Assembly (NCBI GenBank): GCA_963708075.1
Contig: OY970194.1
Coordinates: forward strand, 5,728,001-5,792,000
Reading direction: 5' to 3'
Length of the DNA stretch: 64,000 bases
Source: Sedimentisphaerales bacterium
GTDB lineage: Bacteria; Planctomycetota; Phycisphaerae; Sedimentisphaerales; Anaerobacaceae
The notes under the pieces were generated by a model. The model searched no databases and was not told the DNA's origin. It was given only the letters and a program-made list of their open reading frames with translations. Each line of letters starts with the position of its first letter. The first letter of the stretch is position 1. A program made the translations under genes and the position numbers. Positions 27,656-40,958 of this stretch are shown piece by piece.

Positions 27656-28878
27656 CAGGGCTATCGCATCTAAATGCCAAGGACCTTAAGCAGGTAGTCT
27701 CGGTCCCAGCCGGCTCGGAGGCGTTTGGCGGCGATGCCGCCCTTGGCCGTCTTCTCCTGCTTGAGCAGCATCAGGGCGATTCGACGCAATCGCGAGAAGT
27801 TCTCGGCGGCGTTGGCCACTCGGACTCGACTGGCGTCCTCATGGAAACTCACGTCCAGCGACCAGTGCAACTGGACCTCCACGGACCAGTGATGGCGAAT
27901 CAATGTCCCCAGACGCTGGGCACAGTGTCCCGGATGGGAGCTGATGAAGTAGTGTCGCTTTCGTTCGCACTGGCCGTTGACCTGACGCTCTCGCTCGATG
28001 GCCGTGAGGCTGCCCAGACCCGGCCAGTCGTGACGCCCTTGCAGCCATCCCACATCGCTGGTAGTCCACACCCGGCGGGTTTCCAGTCGTCCATGGCCTT
28101 TTTCCACGGTTTCCCAGAAGTCCTGCTCGCCGGCAAACCCGTGGGCGATGCCGTCCTCCATGTACATCCGGGCATCCTCGTACAGAGTCCCTTGGTTAGC
28201 CTTGAGGGCCAGCACATAGTCGCCGCCCTGATCGACGATCTGCTCGGCGATCTCCTTTTGACAACCCATGGCGTCAATCGTGATGGTTGCCTCCTCCACG
28301 TCGAGCAGCTTGAGCAACTCCGGGATCGCGGTGATCTCATTGCTCTTGGCATCGACCGCCCGTTGGCCGAAAGCCACGCAGTTCTCGTGGACCCAGGCAC
28401 TGACCATGTGCAACGGGCCTTTGGCACGGACCCGATCAAAGCTGTTTCGCAGGGTCTTGCCGTCGATGGCGATGTGCTTGCCCCGGCTGCTGCCGGCCAG
28501 ATCCGCCACAAACGCCTGCATGACCGCTTCAAACGCATCCGGGTCCAGGGCGGCAAAGACCCGACCAAAGGTATCATGCGATGGAATGCCATTGGGCAGG
28601 TCCAGAAACGTGCCAAACCATTCCTCGTTGACGTTGCCGAACATCTCTACGTCCGTCCAGTGCTCAGCCCCGCAGATCACGGCACAGACGCCAATGACCA
28701 GAATATCCTGTAATTCATGCCGTTTCGTCCGCTCCACGCGAGGATCAGGAACCGCGGCAAAATGATCCCAAATCGACTTGCTCATCAAGAACGTATTCCT
28801 CTCTAATCTGAGTGTCTTGCTTCTGAGAAGAATACGAAACCACACCTACAAAGGCTCAATTTAGATGCGATAGCCCTA
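27656..28878 (-). mobile_element. Complete ISAs1-family insertion sequence (1223 bp)
   Basis: 19-bp perfect subterminal IR AGGGCTATCGCATCTAAAT (27657-27675 / 28859-28877); 10-bp TSD GGTTGGTAGC (27646-27655 / 28879-28888). Confidence 0.95.
27670..28785 (-). CDS. ISAs1 family transposase
   Basis: [57 protein letters not shown]. Confidence 0.95.
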
Positions 28879-32634: not shown

Positions 32635-32684
32635 GCACTGCGAGACTTCTAACCATAGTGTGTACGGCATCTTGGGGGGAACAC

Positions 32685-33828
32685 ATGAAGGTGCTGCTTC
32701 TATACGACTATCCGCCGTGTCCTTCCGGCTTGGCGACACAGGGAAGCCTTCTTCATCAGGGCCTGCAGGAGATGGGGGTAGACGTCCATTCCGTCCACCT
32801 GGAGTCGGCCCAGGAGAAGGAATGGTACTATCGCTGGTTCAAGCCCCAGGTGGTCCTCGGTGTCGGGTACTGGGGTCACACTCCCTGCCTCGTGCTGCAC
32901 CCGCAACGCCACGGGGTCCAGGCCGTGGTGCCCTGGCTGGTTGCCGACGGCTATATGGCCGACTACCGGGAGGTCCTGGAAAGCCTGCGCCTGATCCTGG
33001 TCACCTCCCGATGGGTCAAGAGCGTGTACATGCGTGACGGCCTCAAGGGTGGCAATATCGAGGTCCTGCCGGTCGGCTGCGACACGGATGCATTTGCCCC
33101 CCGGGACGGGGATGATCCGAAGGTCGCCGCCGTTCGGGAGGCCCTCGGCGTGGCCCCGGATCAGATCATGATCCTGACGATCGGGGGCGATGCCACGAGC
33201 AAAGGCGCAGGAAGTGATGCAGGCATTGGCCCTGCTTGGTGACCGTGCACCGGCCTGGAAGTACGTGTGCAAAGTCTGGCCGCAGGCACGCACGAAGCAT
33301 CAGAACTCCATCGATCTGCAGTTGGCCGCACAACTGGGGATTGAGAAGAATGTCATCTATACCACCAGCATCACCTCCCGGAATTTCATGCCGTACCTCA
33401 TGGCCGCGTGCGACATCTACGCCGCCCCGTCACGCCTGGAGGGTTTCGGCATGACCCAGGTCGAGGCCAACGCCTGCGGCAAGCCGGTCGTCGGCATCCG
33501 GGCGATGGGACTGCTCGACACCATGGTACACGCCGAAACCGCCTACCTCGCCCGCGTGGAACAGGAAATCCACATCCGGGAGGCCATCGTCAGCGGCGAG
33601 TCCGGCGATCAGGCCGAGCGGCGGGTAGTCTTTGAAAGCCCTCGCATCGTGGACTATCGCGCCAGCGTGCAGGACATTGCCGAGTACCTGCTGCAACTGA
33701 TGCAGAACGCGGACTTGCGCAGGAAAATGGGCGAGGCCGGCCGAAAACGCGCCATCGAGAACTACGACTACCGCATCGTCGCCGGGCAGTTCATCAAAAC
33801 CATCTCCGACAAGCTCGGCATCTCCTGA
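32685..33828 (+). CDS. Glycosyltransferase family 4; frameshift near 33205
   Basis: MKVLLLYDYPP, PVGCDTDAF, then APSRLEGFGMTQVEANACGKPV in the next frame. Confidence 0.85.
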
Positions 33829-34228
33829 CGCGAAGAATCTACGTTTCTTCGAAGAATTGCATCTACATCGAGCGGGAGGGGAGCGGGCCAGCCCTTAGTT
33901 TAGAGTTTAGCGGGTATCTCATCATCACGGGGGCAGGACGGAAGGCAGGGGGCGCATTTTCAGTATTGGATGCATGGAGAAACGCGGGCGAGTCTTCCAG
34001 GTTGATGCATAGGGACACAGCGCTGTAAGTCACCGGGCCACAAGGGGTTGCGATATTTTCACTGGGTAACAGAAATTTCTGCAACAATCTGGCTCGGCGA
34101 ACGTTTCTAGTATATGGGCGTATGCCCATATTCCAAATCAAACAGCAAAGATCAAAGATCAAAAATCAAGATCGGAAGTCCGTTGGGGGGGCGGGAGGCC
34201 CTTCGGAATGCGGATGGATGGGCGATTC

Positions 34229-34597
34229 TGCGAAACAAACCCAATCTGTCCTGCCGGGCTGGCGGTGGGCACAGCCACCCTACGCGAGGGCCGATGTGCG
34301 AAACAAAGCCAAATGTGAGGGGGGCGGGGAGCTTGGCCGGCTATCTGGGACCAGCGGGGACGCTCACCCTACCTTGTGAAACAAAGCCAATTTGCCGGGC
34401 GCAGTCCGGACACGGCCGGGCGGTGGATCCTGCGAAACAAAGCCAATTGGGAGGGGGTGGGGATTGGGAGTCAGGGGATCAGGTGACGGATTGTGCGAAA
34501 CAAAGCCAAACCTGGGAGGAATAGGATATCCGGGGGAGGGTCATACGATATATAAGGCCGCCCTATCGCAGATGTGATTGTGCGAAACAAAGCCAAT
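34229..34597 (+). repeat. Array of six 17-bp direct repeats (TGCGAAACAAAGCCAAT consensus) with unique 39-70 bp spacers
   Basis: Copies start at 34229, 34297, 34375, 34431, 34494 and 34581; 0-1 mismatches each. Confidence 0.9.
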
Positions 34598-34841
34598 TTG
34601 TCTGGCGGGCGGATTCTGTCCAGCGGCGGAGGATCGGCCGCCGGGTGTGAACTGCATCTATTTGGTATCCGGCTGGCGGGGCAAGTTTTCTCTTTGCCGC
34701 AAGGCCACTGGTGCTTATAATACGGCGTCCGGAGTAACAGGGGGCAGTGCCTGAGTACCCAGGAAGTCTGGTATCCCACCGAAGTCCGGACAACCAGGGG
34801 CCGGAAGAGCGTCCCGGTCCGCATGTGTGGTCATTGGGTTT

Positions 34842-34924
34842 GGCCGAGTGGCGGAATGGCAGACGCTGGGGACTTAAAATCCCCTGCCCGCAAGGGCGTA
34901 TGGGTTCGAGTCCCATCTCGGCTA
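34842..34924 (+). tRNA. tRNA-Leu(TAA), CCA not encoded
   Basis: GGCCGAG/CTCGGCT acceptor stem, GGGGA-cttaaaa-TCCCC anticodon arm, long variable arm, GGTTCGAGTCC T-arm. Confidence 0.93.
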
Positions 34925-35087
34925 CTGGGTGGCTATAGGAAAGGTAGCACGGGTGTCCCGCCCGTGAAACGACGACGATGCGCAGGGCTGAAGCCTGTCT
35001 TCGTGAAGGCAGGGGACTCCCGTGCTGCGATGAATCCGGCCTTCAGATACGTTTTCAGGCGGCCGGTCGTCGCTTTGGAGATACGCT

Positions 35088-38866: not shown

Positions 38867-39059
38867 TCAAGGCAAATCAGAAGCGGAGAAACCTTAACGA
38901 TTTCCGGACGTTCTCCCGCTCACAATACCTTCCAAGTCCAGATGTCCCTCTGATGGCACCCGGCTGCCGGATTATTTTGTATGCTCTATGAGGGAGCCGG
39001 CATCCTTACTGTGGCTGCCTTTGCCAGGCGGCGAGTCGGATAAGGAAGGATGGGTGAAC

Positions 39060-39947
39060 ATGTCGGGCATCTGCCAGCAGAGGGTGAGCAGGCGTCAGTT
39101 TCTCAAGAGCGGCCTGGCCCTTGCCGCCGGGACGGTGACGTTTGGGTCCCGCTCGGTCCTCGGTGAATATCGCGACGAATGCACGCGATGGGCGTTCCTG
39201 TCCGATACGCACATCGCCGCCGATCCGGACCATCGCTACAGAGGCTTCTATCCCTACCGCAATCTCCAGGAAATCACGTCGCAACTGGCCTGTGACCTGC
39301 CGGAGGGCCTCGTCATCACGGGGGACCTGGCCAGGTTGAAGGGCCGGCCCGAGGCTTATGCGAATGTGAAGACGTTACTGGCTCCGGTTGCCGAGAAGCG
39401 GCCAGTCTATCTCGGCCTTGGCAACCACGACAATCGCGAGGACTTCTTTCGAACCTTTGGCGATTCCCGCGGCAGCGGCCAGGCGGTCGCCAACAAGCAT
39501 GTCATCGTGGCCGATGAGGGCCCGGTCCGATTGATCATCCTGGACACGCTTCTTCACATCAACAGGATGCCCGGAATGCTCGGCTGGCCCCAGCGCACCT
39601 GGCTGGAGACCTACCTTCGCACATGCGACGACAGGCCCACGATCCTGTTCCTCCATCACACGCCGAAAGTGGATTTGCTCGATACCGGACGGCTGTTCCG
39701 CATCATCGGACCGATGGCCAAGGTCAAGGCCGTCGTGTACGGACACACTCACCACGTCAAGTTCTCCACCTACAAAGGGATTCATCTGATCAACGTGCCG
39801 GCGACAGGCTTCAACCTCGGTGACAGTCACCCGGTCGGCTGGATGGAAGCGAAGCTGACCAGCCAGGGCGGCGAATTCCTCCTGCACGCCATGGCCGGCA
39901 ACAGGCGGCTGAACGGCCTCACCATGAAGCTGGCTTGGAGATCCTGA
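39060..39947 (+). CDS. Tat-exported metallophosphoesterase (CpdA/Icc-like), paralog 1
   Basis: SRRQFL; SDTHI, TGDL, GNHD, GHTH. Confidence 0.88.
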   Translation: MSGICQQRVSRRQFLKSGLALAAGTVTFGSRSVLGEYRDECTRWAFLSDTHIAADPDHRYRGFYPYRNLQEITSQLACDLPEGLVITGDLARLKGRPEAYANVKTLLAPVAEKRPVYLGLGNHDNREDFFRTFGDSRGSGQAVANKHVIVADEGPVRLIILDTLLHINRMPGMLGWPQRTWLETYLRTCDDRPTILFLHHTPKVDLLDTGRLFRIIGPMAKVKAVVYGHTHHVKFSTYKGIHLINVPATGFNLGDSHPVGWMEAKLTSQGGEFLLHAMAGNRRLNGLTMKLAWRS

Positions 39948-40063
39948 GAGTCACTCCCGACTGCACGATTCCGTTGCTGATGGGATTGCACCGTGCCCGC
40001 ATTTCCTGTACAAGAACACCGTTGCAGGATCGTGATCCGACAATCGTGGAAAGGGTGTGGCGT

Positions 40064-40958
40064 ATGTGCCAAGTCTCTGGCGATAGGATGAACAGGCGAC
40101 AGGTTCTCAAGGCCGGATTGGCTCTCGCAGGCGGCCTGGCCGTTCTGCGGCCGTACCGTAGTTGCGGTCAGCCCCCGAAGGACGGTGCCTCGTGGGCTTT
40201 TCTGTCGGACACTCACATCGCGGCCGACCCTGAGAACAACCATCGGGGTCTCTATCCGTACCGGAACTTACAGAAAGCACTGTCGCAGGTCGTGTCCAGT
40301 CGGCCCGAAGGTCTCCGTCATCACAGGAGACATCGCCCGGCTGACAGGGCACATTGGCGACTACGAAAACATCAAGAAGCTGCTGACGCCCATAGCCGAG
40401 GAACGTCCGGTCTACCTGGCGATGGGCAATCACGATGACCGTGCCAACTTTCGTCGCGTCTTTGAGGCGCCTGCCGGTGAGCGGCACGAGCCGGGGGGCA
40501 GGCACGTGATCGCCGTTGACGCCGGGCCCGTCCGATTCCTGATTCTCGATTCGCTCATGCTGACCAACGAGACGCCAGGCTTGCTCGGCAAGGCTCAGCG
40601 CACCTGGCTGGAGAACCATCTGCGAACCTCCGACGACAGACCCGTGATCCTGTTTGTCCATCACACCGTTGGTGATGAGGACGACGCCCTGCTGGATGCC
40701 GCCCGGCTGTTCGCCCTTGTGAAGCCGGCAAACAAGGTCAAAGCCATCATCTACGGCCATTCACACGAGTACGCATTCTCCGAGCACGAAGGCATCCACC
40801 TGGTCAATCTCCCGGCGACGGGATACACCTTTGACGACGTGCAGCCGGCGGGCTGGGTGGAAGCCCGGCTGACTGCCCAGGATGGCGAATTCCGTCTGCA
40901 TGCCGTCGCCGGCAATACTCAGATGGATGGACGGACAACGAAGCTGCGCTGGAGATGA
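40064..40958 (+). CDS. Tat-exported metallophosphoesterase, paralog 2; +1 frameshift at ~40316
   Basis: NRRQVL; SDTHI, then TGDI, GNHD, GHSH in the next frame. Confidence 0.85.

Follow-up and report, generated by a model that had tools for sequence, protein, structure and literature searches.

A 17-bp direct-repeat array of a Sedimentisphaerales bacterium as a probable gene-deleted copy of a dispersed, NIME-like mosaic element

The NIME of Neisseria consist of the dRS3 and RS families, dRS3 being a 20-bp inverted repeat; the account in PMC1797815 reports that NIME arrays were not observed outside Neisseria and that they are syntenic between genomes. CRISPR arrays are described as carrying repeats of 24-48 bp and regularly sized spacers (PMC3733652). 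For the phage terminase small subunit (TerS), PMC9611059 outlines a protein that binds DNA with its N-terminal part, continues with a helical hairpin and ends in a variable tail; the same account presents the P22 pac site as asymmetric and located in terS. In the lambda cosB site, the TerS sites R3 and R2 lie around the IHF site I1 (PMC4856287). The packaging hijack of PICI is the named comparison for the action of a TerS-type adaptor (PMC9026076). No description of the element reported below was found in the literature searched, mostly open-access main texts without supplements.

The window analyzed here is a stretch of 64,000 nucleotides from the genome of a Sedimentisphaerales bacterium (G000: 7.5 Mb in one contig, 60% GC, 92.8% complete by markers). 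It carries six copies of a 17-bp repeat, all on the + strand and each with 0-1 mismatches, that start at positions 34229, 34297, 34375, 34431, 34494 and 34581 with periods of 68, 78, 56, 63 and 87 bp. Shuffled versions of the window contained on average 0.15 repeat matches and six copies were reached in 0 of 100 shuffles. The features of the locus, all on the + strand, are the following.

33961..34200, +: leader of the element (query stretch of an nhmmer search over the genome), with a conserved block from about 34010 to 34180
34026..34052, +: AT-armed site (TAAGTC...GGTTG) towards the left edge, conserved in an alignment of 18 leaders
34080..34106, +: promoter-like pair TGCAAC - 16 nt - CGT(C/T)T, conserved in the aligned leaders
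34112..34131, +: short inverted repeat that closely follows the promoter-like pair, a possible operator (leader alignment)
34135..34169, +: A-rich heptamer run, located before the ribosome-binding site in gene-bearing copies (alignment)
34170..34228, +: putative decayed ribosome-binding site (RBS)/start position of the NRRNA gene and deletion junction, aligning with the RBS/ATG of gene-bearing copies
34229..34245, +: 17-bp repeat 1 (this and the other repeats from the repeat scan)
34246..34296, +: spacer 1, a REP-like palindrome that ends in CCCTAC and belongs to a 21-unit family across 17 arrays (a unit of array A0 matches it at 85% over 55 nt)
34297..34313, +: 17-bp repeat 2
34314..34374, +: spacer 2, from a second REP-like family, with 10 BLAST matches outside arrays, 6 of them exact 20-mers
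34375..34391, +: 17-bp repeat 3
34392..34430, +: spacer 3, a GC-rich imperfect palindrome; BLAST detected no relatives
34431..34447, +: 17-bp repeat 4
34448..34493, +: spacer 4, a G-rich heptamer-like run; no BLAST relatives
34494..34510, +: 17-bp repeat 5, the A-ending variant
34511..34580, +: spacer 5, of a G-rich family found after A-ending repeats
34581..34597, +: 17-bp repeat 6
34694..34721, +: promoter-like site of sigma-70 type before the tRNA, a host feature conserved in array-less relatives
34842..34925, +: tRNA-Leu(TAA), a neighbour outside the element

A sequence-only reading of this stretch had described six near-identical direct repeats with these periods, which the scan and the shuffles confirm; the presence of CACCCTAC in two spacers (spacers 1 and 2), the heptamer-like nature of spacer 4 and the hairpin at 34112-34131 were likewise found in the sequence, and the carriage of REP-like and heptamer pieces in the spacers was borne out. 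It had also called the spacers unrelated. This does not hold for spacers 1, 2 and 5, which have relatives in other arrays (7 units for spacer 1, 4 units for spacer 2 and, for spacer 5, a family whose 15 units were matched by regex, a few only loosely); for spacers 3 and 4, BLAST found no relative in the genome. Units of the spacer 5 family follow 11 of 21 A-ending repeats and 4 of 224 T-ending repeats. No open reading frame spans the whole array. Short-read contigs from run X1 matched the window at 34171-34322 and 34584-34922 with 0 differences, covering parts of the array without spanning it. As X1 is possibly the source sample, this exact match speaks only against an assembly artefact, which was rejected on these grounds.

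The gene upstream of the array ends at 33828 and, judged by its motif alone, we take it to be a glycosyltransferase. Among 21 loci scanned in the same genus, 16 carry the tRNA, and the array was found in 0 of these 16 in the upstream DNA that was fetched; one of them has a lone inverse copy of the 17-mer. Genome G007 has six copies of the 17-mer before the same enzyme gene, and the tRNA is absent. A link to the tRNA was rejected: 16/16 tRNA-bearing relatives are without array and the G007 array is without tRNA. The absence of arrays at these 16 tRNA-Leu loci indicates that the element arrived here in this lineage and that the tRNA is incidental. Several other observations were made around the locus. 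In the leader of the tRNA-Leu (window 34722-34841), a TCCGGA...TCCGGAC pair is conserved among genomes of the genus, and this 5' leader may be structured. In a relative (locus L061 of G011), an integrase-like element ends, by eye, at a partial copy of this tRNA-Leu, which suggests that the tRNA served there as an integration site. The glycosyltransferase-like gene (window 32658-33828, + strand) lies in two frames with a break near 33204; contigs of runs X2 and X3 carry two extra letters at the break, which is thus probably a sequencing error or strain-specific. Two tandem metallophosphoesterase-like genes are present at 38988-40958 (+ strand), the second seemingly split near 40185 as judged by eye.

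The whole of G000 was searched for copies of the repeat. Allowing up to 3 mismatches, 284 copies were found in 42 clusters of at least 2 copies; exact cores numbered 268, compared to 1 for the reversed control, with 9 lying outside arrays, and a search with a looser core motif on both strands gave 0 clusters of mixed orientation. Positions 4-15 of the repeat are 94-100% invariant. The periods vary from 32 to over 150 bp, and helical periodicity over all unit lengths showed no clear peak. Spacers were compared with one another and with the rest of the genome: 134 of the 242 match another array, 151 match non-array sequence and 74 match neither, so that 168/242 match another array or other host repeats (34/242 in the shuffled control). 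Among the 250 units, 155 fall into 22 multi-member families and 95 are singletons. The payloads of the spacers are the genome's own small repeats, including REP-like palindromes and heptamer runs. Fifteen motifs taken from the arrays occur 838 times outside arrays and, inside them, 125 times in array orientation and 6 times in the opposite one, a count that is partly built in as the motifs were read off the arrays themselves. GTAG-type ends were found in 36 sense and 8 antisense units. The genome has 13 Y1-transposase matches, some with the same palindromes at their flanks, and 41 spacers match flanks of Y1-transposase or four-helix-bundle genes, one of these flanks adjoining an array. No replichore bias of the arrays was obvious by eye, the orientation of the next gene was balanced in a crude test (20 vs 21), and the ORFs within 2.5 kb of the 42 arrays include no common neighbour family except an IS.

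Transposase genes and a repeat mosaic were also noted in G000. The window carries a transposase-like ORF of 391 aa (27670-28845, - strand), presumably of ISAs1 type; at G000:C1:4779016-4780337, an NRRNA element is interrupted by a near-identical copy of this ORF, with arrays A28 and A29 on either side, and a further copy lies near array A10. Two near-identical Y1 transposase genes occur in tandem at G000:C1:5283953-5284809. At G000:C1:1191243-1193500, a lone reverse-transcriptase gene (524-aa frame, possibly of defence type) is followed by a dense mosaic built of the small repeats known from the arrays and including one 17-mer.

Nine copies of a gene, here termed NRRNA, are present in G000, all directly before an array, and in these nine cases the array constitutes the 3' tail of the gene. 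The encoded protein begins with M..EAQV.ANRRNAAKSTGPRT..GK..VAQNA.KHGL and has a helical core of about 180 aa. Its predicted structure (pLDDT 82) is all helical, with an N-terminal helix pair, a long antiparallel hairpin and a variable tail; the fold search with this model returned generic helical-hairpin matches only, barely covering the N-terminal 65 residues, and revealed no catalytic fold. The protein has no match in NCBIfam, Pfam, PHROGs or PDB sequences, in the named clusters of the ESM Atlas or in annotated phages, and the HGGxSTG domain (NF041373) matched no NRRNA gene and gave one sub-threshold match elsewhere. Plasmids yielded 6 partial matches, five annotated as hypothetical and one unannotated. 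The family comprises 24,909 representatives at E<=0.001 and 8,210 at 1e-10, some of which match by the N-terminal motif alone. The best named match of the protein, together with its Atlas cluster, points to a Sedimentisphaerales planctomycete as the probable host.

The relation between gene and repeats was analyzed at the level of translation. The sense frame is open in 7 of 8 gene-bearing arrays of at least 200 nt, compared to 1.0 expected from base-shuffled spacers, and six gene-bearing arrays end in the same C-terminal peptide despite differing units; the gene-bearing arrays are related and neither count is made of independent cases. Among gene-less arrays, 5/27 have an open sense frame (0.7 expected). 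Of 121 homologous proteins, 107 have translated repeat signatures, all of them located beyond residue 150, and the repeat is read in all three frames across homologues. Cores were also placed relative to the gene at 30 gene loci of G000 and relatives: 41 in sense and 16 in antisense orientation are downstream, 2 inside and 0 upstream. Codons 5-10 were tested for a hidden 17-mer: AAT was present at N10 in 30/38 cases compared to 18/38 at N13 and N32, an excess explainable by 5' codon bias. The sequence-only reading had argued that the repeat is conserved at the nucleotide level, and the mixed frames in the homologues agree with this; the coding repeat held in one frame, which it had set against its own proposal, is found in part, as the repeats do lie inside the translated C-terminal tail of intact homologues and the frames are mixed. 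Tails of other kinds were seen in relatives. Homologues from Acidobacteriota and Dehalococcoidales (L011-L022) are longer and most full-length ones end in another repeated motif, which translates as GNVIENK and has an A-rich core in common with the 17-mer. At L030-L033, L046-L048 and L050-L052, the gene tail contains an inverted repeat pair with a REP-like and heptamer payload inside, like a small MITE.

Homology of the leader was searched over the genome with nhmmer. Of 17 non-self matches at E<=0.27, 6 are directly followed by NRRNA genes and 10 by gene-less arrays, and the remaining one lies about 1.56 kb before array A21; one extra match at E=0.41 was unrelated. Leader homology is confined to array-bearing loci, and the AT-richer upstream stretch that had been likened to a leader proved homologous to the leader of gene-bearing copies. 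The promoter-like pair, for which 'ECF-type' is our assumed label, is present within 900 nt upstream in 18/42 arrays. Considering all upstream patterns, 18 of the 42 arrays have the leader pattern, 10 a sigma-70-like and 2 a sigma-54-like pattern, these sigma labels being likewise our assumption, and 12 have none. The inverted repeat TGG(T/G)C-N4-G(A/C)CCA is present, by eye, in most aligned leaders. The AT-armed site at the left edge looks like the tail site by eye; its score with the tail-site matrix is 0.3, compared to a 5th percentile of 18.8.

Remnants of the gene start were sought with a matrix that covers the RBS and the first ten codons of NRRNA and draws on 27 relatives. At p<=0.05, 13 of 33 gene-less arrays scored (about 1.7 expected), and several of them contain an unmistakable decayed start, e.g. 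MPRETRLPADRRNAVKS. In the window, the best site precedes repeat 1 by 43 nt, a position also seen in A6, A8, A17, A21 and A24, and its own matrix score is not significant (p=0.46). Judged from sequence, gene-bearing and gene-less copies share common descent; as the leader is homologous to that of NRRNA and gene-less arrays keep decayed start codons, the window array is predicted to be a non-coding, gene-deleted copy of the dispersed element. End alignments gave no evident target-site duplication, terminal inverted repeats or sharp left end. The loci L122/L126 were considered as proof of mobility and rejected as a whole-region duplicate; the regional duplicate in G013 has the same six spacers in both copies.

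Many G000 arrays, the window array not among them, contain an AT-armed 25-bp site at a fixed distance after a repeat. Among 398 units from G000 and relatives, from loci picked by motif matches and including one duplicate region, the site is present in 50; 37 of these 50 units are 90-92 bp long and the offset is 35-37 in 44, with divergent linkers. Most of the copies listed for G006 form repeat/AT-site/repeat pairs. The conservation of length with free linker sequence suggests a bent DNA-protein complex. The host has three genes of the HU/IHF family, and we take the AT-armed site to fit the IHF consensus only in part. A loose pattern for the dif site gave 24 scattered matches in the genome, which are uninformative as to whether the AT-armed site is a dif site.

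The motif is present in 24/24 genomes of the genus, in 8-963 copies (0 for the reversed control). With a single query, the NRRNA gene was found in 16/18 same-genus genomes, and a profile added 3 further genomes. The numbers of genes and motifs are correlated, with a rho of 0.68 over 19 genomes, which as kin are not independent. Two fragmented assemblies depart from this pattern, G006 with 76 motifs and a gene fragment of 23 residues only, and G011 with 11 motifs and no gene match; as they hold motifs without the full gene, a host protein could be the binder. Arrays are similarly expanded in G005 and G013, and the gene was found in 1/20 regions fetched. In 300 other genomes of the phylum, a pattern of short-period pairs, limited to periods up to 62 bp, gave 2 single matches.

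The anatomy of the arrays, the reuse of modules between loci and the lineage-specific presence at this site are direct observations. On balance, we think it probable that the window array arose by loss of the gene from one copy of a dispersed, selfish mosaic element of NIME-like type; the protein encoded by this gene putatively binds the 17-mer. The full element consists of a leader with a putative promoter, a gene for a helical protein of about 180 aa and a tail of direct 17-bp repeats; the N-terminal 43 residues of the protein are of terminase-small-subunit type and its translation often runs through the repeat tail. The protein may bind the 17-mer in double-stranded DNA and pair two repeats, the bend between them being made by a protein of HU/IHF type. 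Recombination or gene conversion between dozens of loci, taking place at the 17-mer, would let arrays grow, reshuffle and take in other small repeats of the genome, and gene-less copies such as the window array would persist and be served in trans. An iterated protein-binding platform, one of the proposals of the sequence-only reading, is a plausible description of the arrays. Several findings weaken the reading as a selfish element: 12/42 arrays are without promoter pattern and 95/250 units are singletons; the window array is without the 90-92-bp module and its start remnant is not significant; the Acidobacteriota homologues end in a different repeated motif; and neither a target-site duplication nor a sharp left end nor a catalytic fold was found.

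An unlikely explanation, taken up here for the phage motif of the protein, is that NRRNA encodes a stand-alone TerS-like adaptor and that the arrays are chromosomal signals of the cosB/pac kind; upon infection by a helper phage, the adaptor would recruit the phage large terminase to the arrays, and the element with its flanks would be packaged and transferred. The element would then be a minimal chromosomal packaging parasite with dozens of sites and gene-less copies acting in trans, without integrase, replicon or capsid genes, which we doubt. A search with the NRRNA alignment found 17 viral loci, 11 of which encode proteins of about 200 aa with the N-terminal motif; in 8 loci scanned, the next long ORF matches the terminase large subunit (TerL) in 4 and a portal gene follows in 4, and one of the viral proteins is over the Terminase_4 cut-off, two falling below it. 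Comparison of NRRNA with phage TerS by hhalign gave a probability of 99% over the first 43 columns only; homology ends at residue 43, beyond which no profile match was found, and no Pfam or PHROG terminase match reveals a Terminase_4 C-terminal domain. The predicted NRRNA model has the general TerS layout as outlined in PMC9611059, and the model of a phage TerS (pLDDT 56) likewise returned no TerS in its fold search. Two repeats around a site for a bending protein would reproduce the R3-I1-R2 layout given for lambda cosB (PMC4856287), and the element repeats are asymmetric and unidirectional as the P22 pac site within terS is asymmetric (PMC9611059); the three HU/IHF-family genes of the host would provide the bending protein. 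However, neither the 17-mer nor the AT-armed site gave a scoring match near 9 phage terS genes, the viral collection contains 14 single exact matches and no array, and the host has no match to the one phage TerL query. The C-terminus, which is the TerL-binding part in TerS, is here a variable mixed-frame tail, and the IHF-likeness of the site relies on a consensus that it fits only partly. In the phage group L088-L098, a conserved insert with four cysteines separates the N-terminal motif of the putative TerS from its Terminase_4-like part.

It is quite improbable that the arrays act as RNA, with the unstructured A-rich 17-mer, transcribed from the leader promoter, serving either as a processing site or as a repeated target of an RNA-binding protein, which may be that of the element itself. 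Promoter-like patterns in sense direction lie upstream of 30/42 arrays, modules are strand-biased with G>C on the sense strand in 40/42 arrays, and a sense frame is open in 7/8 gene-bearing arrays (about 1.0 expected), all of which speaks for this reading; yet the window array folds no better than shuffles (z = +1.06), which leaves a structured ncRNA unsupported, Rfam searched over the window matched the tRNA only and no family in the array, the strict 90-92-bp spacing with free linkers suits DNA geometry, and the inverted repeat pairs in gene tails of several relatives would be disfavoured for a strand-specific RNA site. Neutral debris, i.e. a low-complexity coding tail and repeat hot-spot expanding by slippage and recombination with no protein on the 17-mer, would account for the hundredfold variation in copy number within the genus and for mosaics of the arrays' small repeats that hold one 17-mer only (C1:1192900-1193500). 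We hold it to be highly improbable, given a repeat core that stays 94-100% invariant while spacers diverge and is read in all three frames, and a module whose length is conserved without conservation of sequence. As to a CRISPR-like array capturing unique foreign DNA at its leader end, the succession of a leader and alternating repeats and spacers, together with the 74/242 spacers without BLAST match elsewhere in the genome, would fit such a system; it can practically be dismissed, as PF01867 gave 0 cas1 matches in this one-contig genome (the control matched in 7/14 genomes), the periods are irregular, spacers recur across arrays and among host repeats, and none of 50,697 phage records matches the window array. 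The sequence-only reading was correct that the array is not CRISPR, with its 17-bp repeat, irregular reused spacers and no cas1, and a capture of unique foreign pieces is not supported by the spacer comparison (168/242 match arrays or host repeats).

Read as a selfish NIME-like element, the locus connects a specific DNA repeat and a motif of phage-terminase type with a very large protein family that has no entry in Pfam, NCBIfam or PHROG. It places a NIME-like mosaic architecture outside Neisseria and suggests that these arrays may have originated as the tail of a selfish gene, a candidate origin of a kind that is lacking for NIME itself. The element also explains false CRISPR-like arrays in the lineage, in which the motif can approach a thousand copies per genome. 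Were the packaging reading true, it would constitute a very small route for phage-mediated transfer of chromosomal DNA, and the parasite would steer the terminases of helper phages onto host DNA, driving its own spread together with directional gene transfer.

When compared with known systems, the element resembles NIME in its many intergenic arrays with one short constant repeat between families of variable modules (50-150 bp in NIME), and in arrays that absorb other repeats and insertion sequences, NIME being proposed recombinase substrates in the account of PMC1797815. In contrast to dRS3 as given there, the 17-mer is asymmetric and unidirectional, and the arrays possess a leader, derive from the tail of a cognate gene and, at the site studied here, are lineage-specific, unlike the syntenic NIME arrays (PMC1797815). 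With REP/BIME and their RAYT transposases, as presented in PMC3733652, it shares GTAG-type palindromes, here as spacer payload, and the presence of Y1 transposases; unlike in REP/BIME, the organising repeat is non-palindromic and the REP-like units are passengers, mostly in one orientation and not in inverted pairs (PMC3733652). The leader and the alternation of repeats and spacers in one orientation are reminiscent of CRISPR, whereas the 17-bp repeat, the irregular reused spacers, the lack of cas1 and the origin in a protein-coding tail are not. The 43-residue N-terminal motif and the helical-hairpin layout are shared with phage TerS, and repeats flanking a possible bend site in or beside the gene with cosB/pac, as far as outlined in PMC9611059 and PMC4856287; unlike phage TerS, the NRRNA gene adjoins no terL, portal, integrase or replicon, its product has a non-homologous C-terminal part, and it occurs as 9 dispersed chromosomal copies with gene-less derivatives, phage terS loci being without the repeat. 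Strand-biased heptamer runs before start codons recall the intergenic heptamer repeats of Beggiatoaceae as described in PMC4679880, from which those found here differ in being one module among many in a larger element (PMC4679880). Combined, these comparisons place the element outside NIME, CRISPR and BIME, with a working that is NIME-like.
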